Shown piece after piece: positions 18,456 through 29,154 of a stretch of DNA of 44,622 nucleotides. How positions within the stretch are numbered: the first letter of the stretch is position 1; each line of letters opens with the position of its first letter. A model generated the notes under the pieces. The model saw nothing but the letters and a program-made list of their open reading frames with translations. It was not told where the DNA came from and did not search any database. Both the position numbers and the translations under genes were made by a program. Origin of the DNA: Kagunavirus BCH953P1; sequence record OZ035754.1, one strand, 5' to 3'.

Positions 18456-21001
18456 TCCTGCACTACACTCGAAATGCGGAAGGCGCTTTCGACCGTACAA
18501 AACACGTCGGGATGCCGATGGAGTTTGTCGTTAACCGTATTCCTGACGGCGTGCCGGTGCGCGTCTACCTCGGCGAGATTGGCGATGATACAGATGTAAC
18601 CGACGACTTCGAAGCGCTCAAAGACGAAGATGCCGTGTACCACATTATCGAAGGTGCGGGTAGCGGGGCGCTTGGTGCGGTTAGTAAGGTGTTCGGTTTT
18701 ATCCTTAAGCCAATCGCTAAGTTGTTTGGGTTGAACATGTCCGCAAACGCCAACTACACGGCGACTAACAACCAGACAACGTCACCGAATAACAGCCTCA
18801 CAGACCGCTCCAACAAGCCGCGTCCTTACGAGCGTTCTTATGACATCTGCGGTACTGTGCAGACAATCCCTAATGACCTGATGCAGACGTACAAGGCGTT
18901 CAACTCAACGGGTGCTTTGCTGGAGTATTCGTACTATGACGCAGGGCGCGGGCATCTGCATATTGAGGCTGATGGCGTCACGGAAGGTGACACTCTGATA
19001 AGCGACATCACAGGTTCCTCTGTTGCCGTGTATGCGCCGTATACTTCCCCGAACAACACCGCATCTCCGCAGCTACAAATCGGCGACGTCATTGACCAGA
19101 AACTCTATGTGACATATTCCAATGACGACGTTGACGGTATTGTACTGAAAGCGCCAAACGACATCGGAGCTAACCCAAGCGCTGACGGTACAGCAAAACG
19201 TATATCAAACACCGGCTACATCTATGACCCGTCGGGCGACTCTGCTTTTTCTGAGTTTCTTAGCGTTGGTGATGTGGCGGTGCTTAGCAACTTTGACGTT
19301 GCTGACGTCACTAACCTGAACGGCTCGTTTGAGGTTTTATATGTCGACGACTTCGAGGTTCGGTTGTACGTCGGGAATATAGGTAATTGGGGAAACCTTA
19401 ATAGCGGAGAGACTTACGCACTTACAGAGCGTTCAGATACGTTTATCGGCCCGAGCAACACCTATGACGTATCCCTGACCGACTGGTATTACATGGTGCG
19501 CGGAGAAGTTGACCGGGTGCTTGCTAACGTTGCCGGGCAGAACGGCCTCTACAAATACGACGGTGGGTATAACCGCACCAGCGTAACGGTGGAACTCCAG
19601 TACCAAATGATTGATTCTCAGCGTAACCCGTTGAGCGACATTTACACAGTACAGGCCACCATTACAGGCAACAATACGGATTACGTCGGTACGTCCATTT
19701 ATGGGCAGTTACCGACGGCGTCCCGTTTCCGCGCCCGTATGCGCCGCATAACGAATTATGACAAGGACTACGACGGAACAGTAAGCGACGAGATAACGTT
19801 CATTAACCTGTATGGGCAGTCACTGGACACCACACCGCACTACGGCAACAGAACTACCGTACATTGCGCCCGTAAACAGACGCCGCGCGCCGCCAGCATA
19901 GACAACCCGGAACTGCGCATGATTGCGACCGAGATGTGCTACAAATACTTAGGCAATGGAGTATTCGATACGGTAATGTCGCCAAATACTCAGGCTGTGC
20001 AGTCGCTAATCAGACTGGCACGTGACCCGGCGGTGGGTAATCTGCAACTGACAACGGCAAACATGGACAAGTTACTCGCCGTGCAGGAAGAGATTGAGTC
20101 CTATTTCGGAAGTGAATTAGCGGGGCAGTTCTGCTACACGTTCGACGACTACGACACCACGATGCAGGACATCGTTCAGACTATAGCGGAAGCCGTGTTC
20201 TGCACCGCGTACCGTAAAGGCGCGGATATTATGCTGCGATTCGACCGTCCGGTTGCTGGGCCTGAGATGGTGTTCACACACCGCAGCAAAACTACCGGTA
20301 CGGAGAAGTGGTCCCGCACGTTCAACGATTCGACGACCTACGATAGTCTGTCATTCTCGTACATCGACCCGGATACTAACGTACAGGAAACGATTTATAT
20401 CCCGGAAGAACTCGGAGCAAACACCGAGGAATACGAATCGAAGGGCGTGCGGAACTATCAGCAAGCGTACTGGCTGGCGTGGCGTCGCTACCAGCGCAAC
20501 ATGTTAAGTAAAGTTGTCGTAGAGTTCGAAGCGACCGAAGAGGGGGCACTCGCTACACCGGGCGGCGTAATCAGTGTGGTTAAAGGATCTCGCATCGCTC
20601 CTCAGGACGGCTATGTTGTTGCCGTTAATGGGCTTACGCTTACGCTGTCTCAGCCTGTTACGTTTACCCCAGGGGATGGCCATTCCATCATACTCAAGAA
20701 GCGCGACGGCTCGGTGCAGAGTATCTCTGTTATCAAAGGAAGTCACGACCGTGAGGTGATTATGCTCTCCGCGCCGGAGGAGGCAATCTACACAGGGAAT
20801 AGTGCACTAAAAACTGAGTTTTCATTCGGCAACGAAGCAAGGCATAATGCTCAGAAGATAGTTGTTTCCTCAATCGACCCGGGCGACGACCGCACGGTCA
20901 GGATTACTGGTTACAACTATGACGACGGATTCTATAAATACGACGGCGTCGCGCCATACGGCAGCGGTTTCTCCGACGGATACAGCAACGGTTTTTATTA
21001 A
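18446..21001 (+). CDS. tail tip / central tail fiber protein (host-specificity J-like)
   Basis: 851 aa, large beta-rich protein in distal tail cluster; likely TTG start at 18446, start uncertain. Confidence 0.6.
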   Translation: MAIILHYTRNAEGAFDRTKHVGMPMEFVVNRIPDGVPVRVYLGEIGDDTDVTDDFEALKDEDAVYHIIEGAGSGALGAVSKVFGFILKPIAKLFGLNMSANANYTATNNQTTSPNNSLTDRSNKPRPYERSYDICGTVQTIPNDLMQTYKAFNSTGALLEYSYYDAGRGHLHIEADGVTEGDTLISDITGSSVAVYAPYTSPNNTASPQLQIGDVIDQKLYVTYSNDDVDGIVLKAPNDIGANPSADGTAKRISNTGYIYDPSGDSAFSEFLSVGDVAVLSNFDVADVTNLNGSFEVLYVDDFEVRLYVGNIGNWGNLNSGETYALTERSDTFIGPSNTYDVSLTDWYYMVRGEVDRVLANVAGQNGLYKYDGGYNRTSVTVELQYQMIDSQRNPLSDIYTVQATITGNNTDYVGTSIYGQLPTASRFRARMRRITNYDKDYDGTVSDEITFINLYGQSLDTTPHYGNRTTVHCARKQTPRAASIDNPELRMIATEMCYKYLGNGVFDTVMSPNTQAVQSLIRLARDPAVGNLQLTTANMDKLLAVQEEIESYFGSELAGQFCYTFDDYDTTMQDIVQTIAEAVFCTAYRKGADIMLRFDRPVAGPEMVFTHRSKTTGTEKWSRTFNDSTTYDSLSFSYIDPDTNVQETIYIPEELGANTEEYESKGVRNYQQAYWLAWRRYQRNMLSKVVVEFEATEEGALATPGGVISVVKGSRIAPQDGYVVAVNGLTLTLSQPVTFTPGDGHSIILKKRDGSVQSISVIKGSHDREVIMLSAPEEAIYTGNSALKTEFSFGNEARHNAQKIVVSSIDPGDDRTVRITGYNYDDGFYKYDGVAPYGSGFSDGYSNGFY

Positions 21002-21013
21002 AGAGGATTCTAT

Positions 21014-22960
21014 ATGTCAAGCGGATGCGGTGACGTTTTATCGCTGGAAGATCTGAAAACGGCCAAGAAGCACCAGACCTTTGAGGCCGAAGTCATTACA
21101 GGGCGCGCAGGTGGTATATCATCCGGCGCGGAGATTGACTTTGCGACTAACCAGGTTACCGGACAAGTACAAAAAACTCTTCCGGCGATCCTGCGTGACA
21201 TGGGCTTTGACCCCGCGGCATTTGATTTCACCACCGGCGGCACTGTAACAGCACGTGACACCGTGGTTTACAATTCGGCGGATAATAACTGGTATTCGTG
21301 GGCGGGAGCGCTGCCGCATGTTGTTGTGCCGGGCACTGACCCGACGGCGGACAGTAACTGGAAACCGCGCACGGATCAGTTATTGCGGCAAAACCTGGCA
21401 TCATCCGTGATTCCGGGGACTTCGTTAGTGACCCACTCCGACGGTATTCCGCTTGATGATTATATAGAGATTTTTAACAGAAGAACTAAGTTTGTAATGC
21501 CCGAGGATTTTTCCGGCACTGACACCGAACAGTTACTGGCTGCAAACAGCTATGCGAAAGCAAATAGTGTTAACTTAGTTCTGCAACCAGGAAAGACATA
21601 TATCCTTACTGGTTCTACTGGCCTGGACATTGATTTAGGGTATTTTTCTTTTGGGTGTCCTTTTGGGCGTGCGGGTATCGACGCAACCGGTTTTACAGGT
21701 GATGCCCCGATATGGGTGCATTCCTCGGCGCCGTACTCCGTAGGTTATCGGGTGCATTCTAATATCATGCGCGGTGTATCAGTCGTTGGTAGCCTGAAAG
21801 GAACAGGGCAAGCAGGGATAATCATTGGTAATAAAAATAATAACGCCAATGGGACATATAACGGCGATTGCAACATAATGCATTGCAGTTTCAAAAACTT
21901 TGACAAATTACTATTAGCCACTAACTCAACTTGGCGTTATAAATTCACCGATTGCGGTTTTACCACAGAACTGACGGGAACAACGCACGCTATGCACTTC
22001 CCTTCGGGGCTTTCCGATTCTGGGGAGAGTATCAGTTTTGACAACTGTAAGATCTACGATACTAAGGGCGCTAAAATTCTGCTGGAATGCGCCAACTTCT
22101 CAATAGGTATGTCCGGCACATCCATCCTCAACTGCCCGGTAGAAATAACGGGCGCCGGTGCTTTAATAAATCTCGATAAAACCAGCAATATAGAGAATCC
22201 TGTAGCATCTGCATGGTATCGTTATGTTAAAGTTACGGGCGTGGGTGCTCGATTTAATTTTAACGGATGTACTATTGTCTGTAACAACATGTCTGTACAA
22301 ACACAGCCACTGTTTGAAGTTGGGCCAAATGCGTTTTTGGATTTCAGCCACGTTAAAATGCCGGGTAATAACTATCTTTTCCAGAACGGGACAGAAGGGC
22401 TAAGAACTTTTGTTGAGGGTGACGGATATGTTATCGCGACATCTGTCATCGCTGACATTGCTTCAGGAGCAGGAAATATTCCGCTACATAAATCATTAAA
22501 CCCTACCCGAAACTCAGGTTTTGAGACTGGTGATTTATCATCGTGGTCATTTAATAATCAGGGGTCTGCTAGTCAAACATGCGTAGTTGGTACAGCATAT
22601 AAGAAAACAGGTACCTATGGTGCGAGAATGACATCGTTCGGGTCATTAAGTTGTTTCTTAACTCAAAATGTAAAAGTAACACAGCATAATTATTACACGG
22701 TAACGTGCCAAATCAATACAATAACGGCAGGAGCAGGAACAACGGCAGGGGCGCTAACCGTTACATTTTACGATAGGGCTGGTAGCGCCATCCAATCAGG
22801 TGCAAGTAGTTCTTTTACTAATACACCTAGTGGATGGCAATCTGTAGGACAGTTCATACAAGGCCGAGTGCCGCAGGCCGCGGAATACTGCGAAGTGTCG
22901 ATACGCTGCCGTGAGGGTGCCGTTATTGACGTTGATAATTTTATTATTAATTTTACATAG
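21014..22960 (+). CDS. receptor-binding tail fiber / tailspike (possible beta-helix with C-terminal carbohydrate-binding region)
   Basis: 648 aa, last large late gene; SD AGAGGA; 3' two-thirds visibly AT-richer than the rest of the genome. Confidence 0.6.
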   Translation: MSSGCGDVLSLEDLKTAKKHQTFEAEVITGRAGGISSGAEIDFATNQVTGQVQKTLPAILRDMGFDPAAFDFTTGGTVTARDTVVYNSADNNWYSWAGALPHVVVPGTDPTADSNWKPRTDQLLRQNLASSVIPGTSLVTHSDGIPLDDYIEIFNRRTKFVMPEDFSGTDTEQLLAANSYAKANSVNLVLQPGKTYILTGSTGLDIDLGYFSFGCPFGRAGIDATGFTGDAPIWVHSSAPYSVGYRVHSNIMRGVSVVGSLKGTGQAGIIIGNKNNNANGTYNGDCNIMHCSFKNFDKLLLATNSTWRYKFTDCGFTTELTGTTHAMHFPSGLSDSGESISFDNCKIYDTKGAKILLECANFSIGMSGTSILNCPVEITGAGALINLDKTSNIENPVASAWYRYVKVTGVGARFNFNGCTIVCNNMSVQTQPLFEVGPNAFLDFSHVKMPGNNYLFQNGTEGLRTFVEGDGYVIATSVIADIASGAGNIPLHKSLNPTRNSGFETGDLSSWSFNNQGSASQTCVVGTAYKKTGTYGARMTSFGSLSCFLTQNVKVTQHNYYTVTCQINTITAGAGTTAGALTVTFYDRAGSAIQSGASSSFTNTPSGWQSVGQFIQGRVPQAAEYCEVSIRCREGAVIDVDNFIINFT

Positions 22961-23523: not shown

Positions 23524-23705
23524 TTCTTACCTTCACTTTTCTTGAAACTGCGCTTTATATCCGGCAGCGTGTAGCACCGTGATTTTTCGTATTTACCGTC
23601 CGAGCTTACCAAAACAAAGCTGTTGCCGTCTCTTGATATGTACTCGATGGTGAAAATATTGAATGAATGTACGCTGTATATTTCATCGCCAACATTAAGT
23701 TTCAT
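23520..23705 (-). CDS. hypothetical protein (61 aa)
   Basis: Track ORF; ATGA overlap with the helicase gene upstream. Confidence 0.45.
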   Translation of the reverse strand: MKLNVGDEIYSVHSFNIFTIEYISRDGNSFVLVSSDGKYEKSRCYTLPDIKRSFKKSEGKK

Positions 23706-25126
23706 TTCTTACCTCGTCTCTTCATGTAATTTAGCAATTCTTCCTGGACCGATTTCTTCTCGTCCGTACGCGCAGCGACAACCTCATCCAGCGTGTCTTT
23801 AGCGACGATATGATAGAGGAACACCGGGCGCTCGTGGCCCGCCTGCTTCTGACGGACCGGGCCTATACGCTCAACAACCTGCAAATAGTGCTCAAGGTTC
23901 CAGCCTTGCGAAATAAACGCCAGATGATGGCCGCCGTCCTGTAAATTCAAACCATGACCGGCTGACGCAGGGTGAACGCATAAGATTTCGATTTCCCCAC
24001 GGTTCCACGCTTCCATCTGCTTATTACCCTTAGCACCTTTTGCGAACGCCTGCGCCTGCGGGAATCGCTTAAGGATGCGCTCAAGTTCGTGCTTGAACTG
24101 ATAGGCGACCAGCAACGGCGCTCCCTGTAACTCCTCGACAATCGACTCCAGCGCATCAAGTTTCGTGTCGTGCACTTTCTCCCAGTCTTTGGTTGCTTCG
24201 CCATCCGGTCCTGATACATACACGGCACCGGATGCAATCTGCAGACACTTCGACGTCTTCGCTGCGGCGTTAGCCGCTTCAACTTCTCCGCTCTCCAGTT
24301 CCGCGAATAACTTTTCCTCCATATCGATGTACGCCTGACGCGCCTTCTTCGGCAGGTCGATTTCAACCGGTACGATAACGGGCGCTTCACAACCGAACCA
24401 CTCAGCGGCATCAATCGTAAGGCTGATGTCCTTCATCTTCTGGTGAATTTCATTATCCGCACCCGGGCGGGCGTGGTACTCACGCGCCATCACCGACTTA
24501 CCTTTCTGTACCGAGTTAAACCATCGGTCGGTGAACGCGGTGTATGAAGAACCAAGTCGCTCGCCAGCGTCGATAAACCAGTTCTGCCCCCACAAGTCCT
24601 TGAGGCCGTTTGGCGACGGTGTACCGGTCAGGTTAATGAAGCGCTTAACCTTTCCAAATGCCACTTTGCTGAGCGCCTTAGCCCGCTTGCTCCCACCAGA
24701 ACGGCTACGGAATGATTTCAGTTTCGTGCTTTCATCAGCAACGATAACCGTAAAAGGCCAGTCGTCTTTGCCGTAGTAGTCAATTAGCCACTCGATAACT
24801 TCGTAGTTAGTACACACCACGTTAGCGTCCGACTCCAGCGCCGCGATGCGGCGCTTCTCTGAACCGGTCGCATCGACGACACGTAGACAAGGGAAGTTCC
24901 ATTTCTCTTGTTCTGCAGGCCATGTACCTGACGCAACACGTAAGGGGGCGAGGATTAACACACGGTCGTCGTCCGTAAGTTGCCCATTACGAAACAGGCG
25001 GTTTAGCACCCACATAGTAGAGGAGGTTTTACCCCCTCCCATGCCGCACCAGATATTACAGCGCGGATGTTGTAGCATGAACGAAGTCATGAGCTTCTGG
25101 TACTCTCGACGGATAAATTTAGACAT
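23702..25126 (-). CDS. SNF2/DEAD-like superfamily 2 DNA helicase
   Basis: Walker A GMGGGKTS, DExx motif VIVADEST, C-terminal helicase domain; start at internal ATG 25126 (MSKFIRRE) 2 nt after the methyltransferase stop; track ORF extends to 25444. Confidence 0.8.
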   Translation of the reverse strand: MSKFIRREYQKLMTSFMLQHPRCNIWCGMGGGKTSSTMWVLNRLFRNGQLTDDDRVLILAPLRVASGTWPAEQEKWNFPCLRVVDATGSEKRRIAALESDANVVCTNYEVIEWLIDYYGKDDWPFTVIVADESTKLKSFRSRSGGSKRAKALSKVAFGKVKRFINLTGTPSPNGLKDLWGQNWFIDAGERLGSSYTAFTDRWFNSVQKGKSVMAREYHARPGADNEIHQKMKDISLTIDAAEWFGCEAPVIVPVEIDLPKKARQAYIDMEEKLFAELESGEVEAANAAAKTSKCLQIASGAVYVSGPDGEATKDWEKVHDTKLDALESIVEELQGAPLLVAYQFKHELERILKRFPQAQAFAKGAKGNKQMEAWNRGEIEILCVHPASAGHGLNLQDGGHHLAFISQGWNLEHYLQVVERIGPVRQKQAGHERPVFLYHIVAKDTLDEVVAARTDEKKSVQEELLNYMKRRGKK

Positions 25127-25802
25127 GATTAGCCCCGTAAACTGCTTTTGCGAAACCACGCGGAGTAAGGCTGCGGATTGTTTTTGTTCTGGCGCTCTTT
25201 CCGCCGAGTTTAGCCCAACCAGGGTTATCTCCACTACCCACGGCAACCTCGGCAACGTCGGGCATAACAAACCCATTTCCGGCCCACAGGCACGTCTTTT
25301 TAACATATGCATCTCGCGCCGGGATAACATCCGGGAACATTGGATGTGTGTCGTCTTCGGGTAAATAGCCGCCGTATTCGTACGGATTGAACGCGTAGTC
25401 AGGCTTACGCCATAAAGACGAAAGAACGCTAACCGGGTTCTCAATCATATACGGTACGTTGTACTTTTTAGCCAGACGCGCAGCCACTTTGCATGTAATC
25501 ACGGCCTCTACCTGAAACGTTGGGTTCCTTCTCCGCTTCGTTTCGAAATGGGCCGCGCCGCTAACGGCTAAATCTGTGCATGGGGGGAACGCGAAAATAA
25601 TATCCGGCGCAACGTCGAAGTCGAATTTATTATCAATCCACGCGTTTATATAGTGGATGTTCTCGTGTTCAACTTTTGCGCCCAATCGTGCATAGTCTCC
25701 GTGGTCGGCGCCATCGTAGTTGAAACAATAGCAAGTATGGCCTGCTTCCGCCCACGGCTGGGCCATAAGGCCCGAACCGTCAAACAATGACCAGACAATC
25801 AT
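25119..25802 (-). CDS. DNA (cytosine-5) methyltransferase-like protein
   Basis: 227 aa; motif I-like LFDGSG, motif IV-like FPPCT (PC dipeptide), motif VI-like ENP; short for a full C5-MTase. Confidence 0.5.
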   Translation of the reverse strand: MIVWSLFDGSGLMAQPWAEAGHTCYCFNYDGADHGDYARLGAKVEHENIHYINAWIDNKFDFDVAPDIIFAFPPCTDLAVSGAAHFETKRRRNPTFQVEAVITCKVAARLAKKYNVPYMIENPVSVLSSLWRKPDYAFNPYEYGGYLPEDDTHPMFPDVIPARDAYVKKTCLWAGNGFVMPDVAEVAVGSGDNPGWAKLGGKSARTKTIRSLTPRGFAKAVYGANHV

Positions 25803-25990
25803 TTCGCCACCAGAACTAGCTCTTTACGTCCGAACGCCGTAACGTTACCCGTTACATCTTCGATAACCAGTTTACCGTTCGACTCGACGAACACCGTATC
25901 AACGGCAACAGGACGACGTGTCTTAACGTTGAAAATCATGTCGCCTGGTACGATGTCACGTGCTGGTTTGCGGTCATATTCGTGTTTCAT
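25799..25990 (-). CDS. hypothetical protein (63 aa)
   Basis: Track ORF with ATGA overlap. Confidence 0.45.
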   Translation of the reverse strand: MKHEYDRKPARDIVPGDMIFNVKTRRPVAVDTVFVESNGKLVIEDVTGNVTAFGRKELVLVAK

Positions 25991-26029
25991 TTCTCAATTC
26001 CTTATAGTTAAGGCCCAGAAGGGCCTGTA

Positions 26030-26285: not shown

Positions 26286-26600
26286 TTATAATTCCTTATA
26301 TTGTTGGGGTATGTGCTTACTATAATAGTCTGCTATTAGGGTGTCAACCTGTTTTATAGAGCCAACCACAAAAACATTTGCGCCGCGTTTGCGCATCCGC
26401 TCATGTTCTCGTAGCTGGTGCGGGTCTGGCTTCGTGTTTTCGTCTTTCTTAACCTCGACAAACCATATGATGCCGCCGGGGAGCATTACCAGCAAGTCGG
26501 GGGCGCCGGAGCGCCCCTCGTAGGAAAGTTTACGAACGAGGCCCCCCAGGGCCTCGAATCGGTCTTTCGCGTATTTCTGTACGCGGCCCTCTTTAGTCAT
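26286..26600 (-). CDS. VRR-NUC domain nuclease (PD-(D/E)xK)
   Basis: 104 aa; GAPDLLVM ... FVEVK pattern typical of VRR-NUC. Confidence 0.55.
   Translation of the reverse strand: MTKEGRVQKYAKDRFEALGGLVRKLSYEGRSGAPDLLVMLPGGIIWFVEVKKDENTKPDPHQLREHERMRKRGANVFVVGSIKQVDTLIADYYSKHIPQQYKEL
26319..26347 (-). promoter_or_regulatory. sigma70-type promoter P3 (TTGACA-N17-TATAGT), A-family
   Basis: On minus strand TTGACACCCTAATAGCAGACTATTATAGT; lies in the 3' end of the VRR-NUC gene, upstream of 26030..26284. Confidence 0.55.
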
Positions 26601-26831: not shown

Positions 26832-26963
26832 TCACTCCAGCACCCACAGATAAATTGCGATAAACATACCTAATACGGCGACCATCATGCCGTATTGACC
26901 CTCGTGACAGTAGACACCGGCGGCGAATCCCGCCAGTACCGCGATAATCAGTTTACTTAGCAT
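26832..26963 (-). CDS. hypothetical small membrane peptide (43 aa)
   Basis: Read from sequence; hydrophobic; start overlaps DNA polymerase stop. Confidence 0.3.
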   Translation of the reverse strand: MLSKLIIAVLAGFAAGVYCHEGQYGMMVAVLGMFIAIYLWVLE

Positions 26964-29154
26964 AACGCTTCATCTCCGCACCTTCTGCCACAAGAGGGAA
27001 CCCCTCGGCCCAATCAGGTAATTCGCACATTAATTTCTCCAGTTCGGCCACCGTGTACTCGGGGGTGTCCGGAGTTTCGCACACCAGTTCATCGTGTACA
27101 GAAAGCACGATGGGATACCCGCCACCCTCAACATTAATCATTGCATATGCGAGTAAATCACGGCACAGCGCCTGAACAATGTTTTCGCAGGCTTTGCCGC
27201 CGTGCGTGTACAGGGTAGTCCATTGGCGGGTTAACTGGTTTTCACCCTGATACTTGATTCTCACATTCGTGTTTACCCGTCCGTCTTCGTCTGTTTCCTT
27301 TGTCACACTAACGCCGATTCCCGGATACGAGAGGATGCGACCTGACGGCAACTCCATACATAACCACCAACCGGGAACCTTCCTACCGGATGAATCAAAT
27401 TCTACTGTTCTCCAGATTCGGATAGCGCGCTCGCCATTCTTGCGCAGATGTGCCCCCGCCCAAAATTCACGACCCGGATTTCTTACAGCGGCTAAAATAC
27501 CGTCTTTGAGGTCGCGCCAGAACGCTACTGTTTCCGGGTGTGACTCGCGCCACATACGCTTGATTGCGTCGCAGGTGCGCCACACTTTCTTGTCCAGAAT
27601 ATACGATGGTCGGTCATCCTTCTCACCTGGATGCGGGGGGCGCTTGGCTTCCTGAATACGCGCCCACTCATACCCACGTGCGGTAGCAGCCCATATGTGG
27701 TCAGGGAATGTACCGTCCATTGTTTTAGTCATCTCAATAAGGTCGAGGCCTAAGTTTTTGGCGAACGTAACGAACGCTCCTACACCCCCCTCATAGCCGA
27801 GGCCAAGCTCGCAGGCCTTGCCTATCTGTCTGATTTCCTTGAAGTTTTTCTTAATATCATCTGGGTCCATGCCGAACATCTTACCCGCGGTTACGCAGTA
27901 AATATCAAGGCCGGCGCGGAACGTATCGAGCGCGGTTTCTTCACCGGCCAGCCACGCTAAACCGCGACCTTCGACGTTAGAATAATCGGCAACAACAAAC
28001 TTATGTCCTGCTTCCGGTATGATGCAGCTACGCACCGTCGATGCCGTCAGCTTGGCCACGTCGAAACGGCGGTGCGCGCGGCCTTTAAGTAGCGCAGAAA
28101 TGCCTTTATCCAGTTCATCATCGTGATAGTACCCGCGCGCCAGGTTCTGCGGCTGGAAGCCTTTACCTGCCCATCGCAGAGTACGTTTTGCCCCGCCGTA
28201 CTGTAAACACCCCCGACGGCGGTCGTCCGAAGAGCGGCCTAACAACAGCGGGTTATATTTCGTTGATGCGGTGGACGCGGCCCCGAGGCGCATTTCGATA
28301 ATCGTGCGGGCGTCATCCGGTAAGTCCTCGTCCGCCAGCAGGTCGTTAAGGGTAGACTTCTGTGCGTTGTGAATGCGGTGCGCGGGGGCGAGTTCACGCA
28401 GAATCGGAAGGAAGTCCTTTCCGGTAAGCGAGCCGCCGTATTTGCGTTGTGCTTCTTCCTGTAACTGCGCCTTGTGTTTCTCTACGGCTTCAATCGCGGC
28501 TTCCGCCAGTGCAACGTCAACCTTAAACCCGCGGTCGTTGATTAACTGGTCCAATTCCAGTACCCGGTCTTCGAACTCGGAATTACCCCAACGCGGCAGC
28601 TTATGGAATACTTCTCGCATCGCAGTGATGTCGCTCACGGCGTACTTGATGAACAGCGCCCACTCGTCCGGGTGTGTTTCTGCGGTGTAGCGGCGAATTT
28701 TGTAGTTCTTCGGTGTCGGTTTAGAGAAACGCTTAATCAGTGCCTTGCCGCGCTTATCCTTCGCATTGTCAGCGGACACGCCCAGCACTTCGCACAACGC
28801 ATCAAGTGACCCCGGCAGCGCGTGACGAAACGCCCAAATCATCGTATCAATGGTGTTGCTTACCGGAATATCAAAGCCCCAGCAGTGTTTCATGATAAGG
28901 CGATCGAAAAGTCCACCGTTGTGCCACACCATCTTGATGCGGCTGTTTGGCTTAACCAGACGGCGTAACGCGCGGTGCAAATCGCCCGGCATGTCGCTGC
29001 CGTCGGTGCAATCCCATACCTGCACCGGCTCGTCGTCAAAAGCATAGGTACAGATAAGCACTTCGGTAGTTGGGTGTTCAGCGTAGGCGTAGGAACCGAC
29101 TTTCTTTAAATTGGCTTCGGAGAATGTTTCAAAGTCTAAGAACAGGTAACTCAT
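26953..29154 (-). CDS. DNA polymerase, family A, with N-terminal 3'-5' exonuclease domain
   Basis: 733 aa; N-terminal exo I motif LFLDFETFS; C-terminal LSVHDELV motif C-like. Confidence 0.85.
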   Translation of the reverse strand: MSYLFLDFETFSEANLKKVGSYAYAEHPTTEVLICTYAFDDEPVQVWDCTDGSDMPGDLHRALRRLVKPNSRIKMVWHNGGLFDRLIMKHCWGFDIPVSNTIDTMIWAFRHALPGSLDALCEVLGVSADNAKDKRGKALIKRFSKPTPKNYKIRRYTAETHPDEWALFIKYAVSDITAMREVFHKLPRWGNSEFEDRVLELDQLINDRGFKVDVALAEAAIEAVEKHKAQLQEEAQRKYGGSLTGKDFLPILRELAPAHRIHNAQKSTLNDLLADEDLPDDARTIIEMRLGAASTASTKYNPLLLGRSSDDRRRGCLQYGGAKRTLRWAGKGFQPQNLARGYYHDDELDKGISALLKGRAHRRFDVAKLTASTVRSCIIPEAGHKFVVADYSNVEGRGLAWLAGEETALDTFRAGLDIYCVTAGKMFGMDPDDIKKNFKEIRQIGKACELGLGYEGGVGAFVTFAKNLGLDLIEMTKTMDGTFPDHIWAATARGYEWARIQEAKRPPHPGEKDDRPSYILDKKVWRTCDAIKRMWRESHPETVAFWRDLKDGILAAVRNPGREFWAGAHLRKNGERAIRIWRTVEFDSSGRKVPGWWLCMELPSGRILSYPGIGVSVTKETDEDGRVNTNVRIKYQGENQLTRQWTTLYTHGGKACENIVQALCRDLLAYAMINVEGGGYPIVLSVHDELVCETPDTPEYTVAELEKLMCELPDWAEGFPLVAEGAEMKRYAK

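Follow-up and report, generated by a model that had tools for sequence, protein, structure and literature searches.

Phage K42, a KarlJaspers-like member of Drexlerviridae, encodes a Dcm that triggers retron Ec86 (Eco1) (bioRxiv 10.1101/2023.08.16.553469), in a study by Wang et al. which later appeared in Cell Rep 2024;43:114857, as cited in PMC12673091. The gene is 711 bp in length, and C82, E128, K175 and K176 are the catalytic residues of its product (bioRxiv 10.1101/2023.08.16.553469). Ordinary 5mC on the retron msDNA was raised by K42 Dcm, as determined by LC-MS against a standard, while the phenotype was lost with a quadruple catalytic mutant (C82 included) which served as the inactive control, and phages escaping retron Ec86 had lost the dcm gene (bioRxiv 10.1101/2023.08.16.553469). 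The specificity for CCWGG was assumed from the host Dcm and tested only by mutation of the msDNA hairpin, and this hairpin, in the DNA part of the single-stranded msDNA, is the sole substrate demonstrated for a homologue (bioRxiv 10.1101/2023.08.16.553469).

A related gene was identified in the window analysed here, that is, the whole stretch of 44,622 nucleotides from Kagunavirus BCH953P1 (OZ035754.1), a phage of Guernseyvirinae with 99% identity to OZ035805. The 236-aa homologue from Warwickvirus tonnikala, equal to K42 Dcm in length and residue numbering, was taken as its stand-in, and showed 59% identity to the window protein over 232 residues (E 5e-103). Another protein with 236 aa and the correct numbering (P0097) was rejected as the K42/KarlJaspers Dcm, being Sasha-like instead. 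Drexlerviridae homologues of 236 and 234 aa have exactly C82, E128 and K175/K176, and judging from gene length, residue numbering and phage family, C82, E128, K175 and K176 of K42 would correspond to C75, E121, K168 and K169 here. Both enzymes belong to a compact family (236 aa versus 227 aa) and, as seen through the Warwickvirus homologue, have the DNPGW variant of a hypervariable loop. They differ in phage family, in genomic position, which in K42 is not beside a helicase, and in about 40% of residues.

The label "Dcm" in phage annotations originated from Dcm of E. coli K-12, which together with M.EcoRII-type CCWGG enzymes (472 aa) has the reaction class and the order of motifs IV and VI in common with the window protein, but is twice as long and contains a full target-recognition domain (TRD). 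Sequence homology to E. coli Dcm was not detected by BLASTP (E 0.42) or hhalign (probability 2.4%, motifs IV-VI only). The name is an analogy, so CCWGG specificity is not transferable by homology. The type II enzymes M.HhaI and M.HaeIII (PF00145) have motifs I, IV and VI in the canonical order, as does the window protein, which, compared with canonical type II C5 methyltransferases, is about 100 residues shorter, has KKT in place of QxRxR and 36 residues in place of the TRD, and is without an endonuclease partner.

The open reading frame lies at 25119..25802 and encodes 227 aa, just as the initial annotation had it; it is on the minus strand and starts with ATG. Its product is very probably an active orphan AdoMet-dependent DNA cytosine-C5 methyltransferase of the compact Dcm-like family, as predicted from the following features. 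Motif I (FDGSG, residues 7-11, 25770..25784, minus), the AdoMet-binding loop after strand beta-1, was read from the sequence, with G9, S10 and G11 invariant among close relatives, and an HMM alignment to M.HaeIII residues 2-79 spanned this motif. Motif IV (PPCT, residues 73-76, 25575..25586, minus) provides the nucleophile Cys75, which was invariant in 54 divergent members of the family, with F72, P73 and T76 nearly invariant; in the profile alignment its PC was in register with the PC of M.HaeIII. Motif VI (ENP, residues 121-123, 25434..25442, minus) contains the catalytic Glu121; E121 and P123 were invariant and N122 nearly so in the same 54 members, with Pro taking the place of Val at the third position in the whole family. 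All three motifs were located where the initial annotation had put them. When the family profile was aligned by hhalign with single sequences, PPCT matched FPCQ and ENP matched ENV of M.HhaI and E. coli Dcm, at a probability of only 1-2%, so that this alignment serves as an illustration only.

Motif VIII in its QxRxR form was absent, and the equivalent strand reads Y166-x-K168-K169-T170-C-L-W173. In the structure model K168-K169-T170 (25293..25301, minus) begin the strand at 170-175 (KKTCLW) as the positional counterpart of motif VIII; K168 and T170 were nearly invariant and W173 invariant in the 54 divergent members. This triplet is a putative equivalent of QxRxR, and its lysines may functionally replace the arginines, judging from the K42 quadruple mutant, in which C82 and E128 were altered at the same time. 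The motif IX/X-like C-terminus (residues 210-225, RSLTPRGFAKAVYGAN, 25128..25175, minus) was recognized by conservation and by model helices at 204-210 and 215-225, with R210, S211, L212, T213, P214, R215 and G216 invariant among close relatives, and R210, S211, P214, G216 and A220 nearly invariant in divergent members.

The family is large and already annotated, and consists of phage DNA cytosine methyltransferases of unusually small size. The window protein matched PHROG 757 "DNA methyltransferase" over residues 1-226 (E 7e-86), and a total of 7010 homologues were found in databases, so that the resemblance goes beyond chance. Homologues occurred in 1527 phage records, many of which name them DNA cytosine methyltransferase or Dcm. 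They formed 2038 clusters at 50% identity, mostly of 210-260 aa. With homologues this abundant and mostly of this size, the short length and PPCT/ENP are family signatures and not marks of truncation. The family-invariant residues C75, G82, E121, P123, P140, Y166, W173 and P181 were all present in the window protein. The Pfam match to PF00145 was sub-threshold (16.5 bits versus a cutoff of 22, E 0.0059) and covered residues 3-102 only, the N-terminal 100 residues or so aligning to PF00145 positions 3-98; just 3 of the 54 family members reached PF00145 at E<0.01. No match was given by the NCBIfam scan, and nothing significant came up when PDB sequences were searched with the protein itself and with two profiles, the best relevant hit being M.HaeIII (E 0.72, motifs I-IV only).

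The motifs had been called non-canonical, and a diverged enzyme with altered chemistry had been suggested. Such an enzyme would transfer a group other than methyl or produce a precursor of hypermodification. In its favour, T for Q in motif IV and P for V in motif VI are fixed in the family, and motif VIII is without the arginines of QxRxR. But PPC is also found in M.HaeIII, T76 is nearly invariant and P123 invariant in the family, and Cys75 and Glu121, on which the chemistry depends, are intact and did not vary among the divergent members. The product of K42 Dcm was ordinary 5mC, and the annotation of the relative SZH-1 names no gene for hypermodification, such as a dioxygenase or glycosyltransferase, so that altered chemistry is very improbable. 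The PPC motif is also known from eukaryotic DNMT1 and DNMT2, and DNMT3 has PCxDLS.

The gene lies in a minus-strand replication module with the order DNA polymerase, VRR-NUC, small ORFs, methyltransferase and SNF2 helicase. Downstream is the gene of an SNF2-related DNA helicase (474 aa, 23702..25126, minus; PF00176 SNF2-rel_dom, 1e-12), whose start MSKFIRRE corresponds to the ATG at 25126, which gives an 8-nt overlap with the methyltransferase stop at 25119-25126 (ATGTCTAA); the 2-nt gap given by the initial annotation was a mistake. An identical overlap was present in the annotated relative SZH-1. Upstream, a hypothetical 63-aa ORF (25799..25990, minus, from the ORF list) overlaps the methyltransferase ATG with its stop by 4 nt (ATGA); it had no Pfam match, and its counterpart is annotated as hypothetical protein in SZH-1 and L223. 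Scans for promoters and terminators revealed nothing specific. In the related phage Henuyfy11N the methyltransferase was precisely missing while the helicase was retained, and the sequence of the 63-aa ORF, where no CDS is annotated, directly abutted the helicase ATG. The VRR-NUC gene near the methyltransferase was likewise retained in the phage without it. The methyltransferase gene is an accessory cassette. Genomes of relatives with and without the methyltransferase were 88-90% identical, having diverged too recently for their composition to have changed.

The tight coupling to the helicase might be read as a sign that the protein serves the SNF2 helicase as an accessory subunit or regulator without catalysis of its own, the fold being used for DNA binding only. 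The 8-nt translational overlap would agree with this, as would the adjacent genes of Dhillonvirus, where the order is reversed, and a 1397-aa helicase protein of an uncultured phage which contains a similar domain. However, conservation extends to the catalytic Cys and Glu as well as the AdoMet loop, and the phenotype of the K42 homologue was lost on mutation of its catalytic residues. In T1-like and Warwickvirus phages the gene is located well away from any helicase, and Henuyfy11N has the helicase alone. The coupling is positional only, a functional link between methyltransferase and helicase was rejected, and a silent subunit is hardly to be expected.

The AlphaFold model (pLDDT 90, pTM 0.89) places the protein in the C5-methyltransferase catalytic-domain fold. 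In the Foldseek search against PDB all of the 50 matches at E<=1e-3 were cytosine-C5 DNA methyltransferases, DNMT3A being the best (1.4e-6), and DNMT3A/3B were followed by M.HaeIII, MET1 and DNMT1, with modest TM-scores of 0.4-0.53; the structural matches in BFVD were phage cytosine methylases. The catalytic domains of DNMT3A and DNMT3B (4u7t, 6brr, 6f57; E 1e-6 to 1e-5, TM 0.42-0.53) had only 12-18% identity to the window protein. DNMT3 enzymes have PCxDLS as motif IV, similar to PPCT, and an unusually small TRD, but they have ENV, RxR in motif VIII and a longer TRD loop, and form a tetramer with regulatory domains. Nothing in the comparison indicated a direct evolutionary link between the phage family and DNMT3. 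A DNMT2-like enzyme that methylates cytosine C5 in RNA (tRNA), DNMT2 likewise having a PPC motif and the DNA-methyltransferase fold, would agree with the PPC motif, the small size and the single-stranded msDNA hairpin, not double-stranded DNA, as the only demonstrated homologue substrate, but is very improbable, since DNMT3A/3B, M.HaeIII, MET1 and DNMT1 and not DNMT2 were the best among the matches listed, the 5mC made by the homologue was in the DNA portion of msDNA, a D12 Dam DNA adenine methyltransferase is fused to one member of the family, and the gene is within the replication module.

As a DNA cytosine-C5 methyltransferase, the protein would bind AdoMet in its Rossmann-type core via FDGSG and flip the target cytosine out of DNA. 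Cys75 would then attack C6 and Glu121 would protonate N3, and after transfer of the methyl group to C5, beta-elimination would free 5-methylcytosine. The gene is predicted to be translationally coupled on both sides within the minus-strand replication operon. From its place in this operon it would act on replicating phage DNA and shield it from 5mC-sensitive restriction enzymes. The initial annotation had suggested an orphan enzyme for anti-restriction. Its orphan status held, as no restriction endonuclease partner was found beside the gene, the neighbours being the 63-aa ORF and the SNF2 helicase, and as the accessory gene is missing from a relative; an anti-restriction role would fit this. 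The precise absence from a related phage is as expected for an accessory counter-defence gene. As a side effect, infection would be expected to set off retron Ec86 (Eco1), a defence responding to methylation of its msDNA by the compact family. DNA of the phage is predicted to carry 5mC even from dcm-minus hosts, and retron Ec86/Eco1 would be expected to act against the phage, as might type IV restriction enzymes that depend on 5mC.

Although real, the finding is an ordinary one. Records of related Kagunavirus phages already give the gene as "DNA cytosine methyltransferase", and one member of the family has been characterised, so the annotation is little changed. The question is how the target is chosen by an enzyme of 227 residues with 36 residues in the place of a TRD. 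The protein had been described as short and without an obvious TRD, which was borne out: a canonical TRD, which takes up about 80-150 residues from motif VIII to motif IX, was absent, and the motif-VIII-like strand KKTCLW is separated from the motif-IX-like RSLTP by only 36 residues. Residues 174-209 (25176..25283, minus) form a putative mini target-recognition segment, with a family median of 36 residues and a range of 33-76. A hypervariable loop, SGDNPGWAK in the window protein, is bordered by conserved GNGFxMP and LGGKSxRTK. The segment had the lowest pLDDT in the model (63 for block 191-200), and was mosaic between relatives, relative to the catalytic core. A conserved insert spans residues 131-169.

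This segment with its loop is the best candidate for the part that decides which sequence is methylated. A bolder proposal, which is tentative and rather doubtful as a whole, is that of a minimal C5 methyltransferase whose choice would depend on a 36-residue mini-TRD that can be exchanged, two or more alleles of which (DNPGWAK and GYSxQHxK, P0037 being of the GYSxQH type) would be shuffled by recombination between otherwise near-identical enzymes, and with a target which is not CCWGG but shorter, relaxed, or dependent on structure (hairpin or single-stranded DNA). For a mapped recognition motif, annotation-level mentions were all that the literature gave for the compact family. There were 89 CCWGG sites in the window versus about 122 expected, a mild under-representation and no strong avoidance, and since host Dcm would also protect such sites, the count is uninformative on specificity. 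Enzyme engineering could profit from a C5 methyltransferase this small if its recognition loop can be swapped. As a point against the main reading, residue 28 of the window protein is Asn, which is shared by the K42-type relatives, while Asp occupied this position in more than 90% of the divergent members.

The methyltransferase gene of the window is a member of a very large family of compact phage orphan enzymes, one of which has been biochemically characterised; the family was annotated before. The ORF (25119..25802, minus strand) started with ATG and encoded 227 aa, and direct reading of the same strand gave the motifs FDGSG (residues 7-11, 25770-25784), PPCT (residues 73-76, 25575-25586) and ENP (residues 121-123, 25434-25442). 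The coordinates, length and motifs of the initial annotation were right, and so was its recognition of a real, C5-methyltransferase-like gene. It had also placed a 2-nt gap before the downstream SNF2-type helicase gene (minus strand; PF00176, E 1e-12), which was wrong, since the helicase starts at ATG 25126 (MSKFIRRE...) and the two genes share 8 nt, ATGTCTAA. In the annotated relative SZH-1 the two genes likewise share 8 nt. A mechanical ORF list began the helicase at TTG 25444 (23702-25444, minus), 106 codons earlier and inside the methyltransferase gene, and this start was rejected in favour of the ATG.

The gene lay in a minus-strand replication operon in the order DNA polymerase I (26953..29154), small ORFs, VRR-NUC (26286..26600), 84-aa and 63-aa ORFs, methyltransferase, SNF2 helicase and two small ORFs, with the 63-aa ORF overlapping the methyltransferase ATG by 4 nt. 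The surrounding 4 kb was 99.1% identical to Kagunavirus BCH953P1 (OZ035805). With many phages of E. coli, Salmonella and Klebsiella from the genera Kagunavirus and Jerseyvirus (Guernseyvirinae) it shared 86-92% identity, and their records label the ortholog as "DNA cytosine methyltransferase", "Dcm", "DNA methylase" or "hypothetical protein". The short intergenic stretch that separates the 84-aa from the 63-aa ORF in this operon contains a GC-rich hairpin, AGGCCCAGAAGGGCCT (26011-26026), and a near-identical one, GGCCCCGAAGGGCC, was seen at the matching place in Escherichia phage Henuyfy11N.

Over its whole length the protein matched PHROG 757 "DNA methyltransferase" (E 7e-86). Pfam PF00145 covered only residues 3-102, with 16.5 bits (cutoff 22); the NCBIfam scan gave no match, and PDB sequence searches gave none that was significant. 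Homologues were found by tblastn in 1527 phage records, including Drexlerviridae (T1-like), Dhillonvirus, rV5-like, Klebsiella (e.g. TSK1), Campylobacter, Vibrio and Arthrobacter phages, and a large protein database held 7010. A profile search (E<=1e-3) returned 2038 clusters at 50% identity, whose full-length members were nearly all 210-260 aa, so the short length is a family property and truncation was rejected as its cause. Among 54 divergent members C75, G82, E121, P123, P140, Y166, W173 and P181 were invariant and F72, P73, T76, N122, K168, T170, R210, S211, P214 and G216 nearly so, which makes PPCT and ENP the forms that motifs IV and VI take in this family. The compact domain also occurred in fusions: with an HNH endonuclease domain in the homologue P0260 (348 aa), and, in similar form, inside a 1397-aa uncultured-phage protein named 'Helicase/UvrB, N-terminal' (BFVD A0A6J5SE15). 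In the homologue P0258 (563 aa) it was joined to a D12-class Dam N6-adenine methyltransferase, which agrees with a DNA methyltransferase family.

The AlphaFold2 model, built from a 28-sequence alignment, was confident (pLDDT 90, pTM 0.89). All 50 Foldseek matches in the PDB at E<=1e-3 were cytosine-C5 DNA methyltransferases, headed by DNMT3A/3B catalytic domains (E 1.4e-6, TM 0.42-0.53) and followed by M.HaeIII, MET1 and DNMT1; among viral models the best matches were phage cytosine methylases. The secondary-structure order fitted the C5 class, with beta-1 leading to FDGSG, beta-4 to PPC and beta-5 bearing ENP, strand 170-175 (KKTCLW) at the expected place of motif VIII, and C-terminal helices bearing RSLTPRGFAKAV, a stretch similar to motifs IX and X. 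Only 36 residues separated the motif VIII strand from RSLTP (family median 36, range 33-76), in keeping with the earlier remark that no target-recognition domain (TRD) was obvious. Canonical C5 enzymes have roughly 80-150 residues between motifs VIII and IX.

Wang et al. (bioRxiv 10.1101/2023.08.16.553469; cited in PMC12673091 as Cell Rep 2024;43:114857) isolated retron Ec86 escapers from Drexlerviridae phage K42, and the lesions of 4 of 4 fell in a gene of 711 bp described as a "Dcm-like C5 cytosine methyltransferase". Its expression was toxic only with the retron present and increased 5mC in msDNA by LC-MS, while the C82A/E128A/K175A/K176A mutant gave neither effect; its model superposed best on DNMT3A (10.1101/2023.08.16.553469), like that of the window protein. 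The Warwickvirus tonnikala homologue, matched by gene length and residue numbering, stood in for K42 Dcm: read from its third in-frame Met it is 236 aa long (711 bp) and has C82, E128, K175 and K176 at precisely these numbers, a numbering shared by the T1-like SH6 protein (234 aa). The tonnikala homologue and the window protein agreed in 59% of residues over a 232-residue alignment (E 5e-103), and the four residues corresponded to C75, E121, K168 and K169. Therefore the compact family comprises genuine 5mC-forming DNA methyltransferases, and everything known to matter is retained in the window protein. The altered chemistry offered as an alternative found no support, as K42 Dcm, for which the 59%-identical homologue stands, makes 5mC and the counterpart residues are kept. 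The most likely function predicted is to counter restriction by adding 5mC to phage DNA after replication, which by analogy may bear the known cost of triggering retron Ec86/Eco1.

The "Dcm" label is an analogy: E. coli K-12 Dcm (472 aa) had no significant similarity to the window protein or the family profile (BLASTP E 0.42, hhalign probability 2%). CCWGG was assumed for K42 Dcm from the host enzyme and checked only by a CCTGG mutation in the msDNA hairpin, and msDNA 5mC was still low without the phage enzyme in the dcm-plus host MG1655 (10.1101/2023.08.16.553469). The hairpin mutation could also disturb effector contacts. No paper mapping the family's recognition motif was found in the literature searched. 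The window contained 89 CCWGG sites where about 122 were expected, a difference that carries no weight either way.

In place of a TRD, the 36-residue segment carried conserved flanks, GNGFxMP and LGGKSxRTKxIRSLTP, around a hypervariable loop. Two loop types dominated among enterobacterial phages, DNPGWAK (window protein and tonnikala/K42 type) and GYSxQHxK, and these alleles spread independently of core similarity. Residues 156-205 (25188-25337) were mosaic between relatives compared with the core: the homologue P0037 was 94% identical to the window protein over residues 1-155 and only 62% over 156-205, whereas several proteins about 60% identical in the core reached 68-72% in the segment when the DNPGW loop was in common. 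Such a pattern would be expected of an exchangeable specificity module, which the segment may be, a modest lead on how so small an enzyme reads its target sequence.

The tight coupling to the helicase noted initially holds in that the genes adjoin, but functional dependence does not follow, as in other phages the gene also lies without a helicase nearby. In the related phage Henuyfy11N (L006, 2380-2640, against window 25100-25830) the methyltransferase was cleanly absent, with no remnant detectable by tblastn, and the helicase ATG took the position of the methyltransferase ATG, immediately behind a stretch that matches the 63-aa ORF. In Dhillonvirus the two neighbours were in reversed order: in its member Escherichia phage PaulFeyerabend (L004, 1080-4551) the helicase preceded the Dcm-like gene with a 4-nt overlap. 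T1-like and Warwickvirus phages carried the gene among small early genes, with no helicase close by. Thus the overlap is operon packing.

In PaulFeyerabend a homing endonuclease came next, together with a Dam-like N6-adenine methyltransferase distinct from the Dcm-like one, so both methylases occur in this phage, whereas GATC is avoided in the Kagunavirus window. The depletion was extreme: by a maximal-order Markov estimate about 160 GATC sites were expected, and 11 were present (3562, 7146, 10545, 17454, 20586, 21050, 21187, 21374, 22051, 28902 and 38308); CTAG was depleted too, with 18 sites where 71 were expected. Of the 11 GATC sites, five were grouped at 20586-22051, mostly inside the tailspike gene (21014..22960), which suggests recent import of the tailspike from a source without GATC avoidance.
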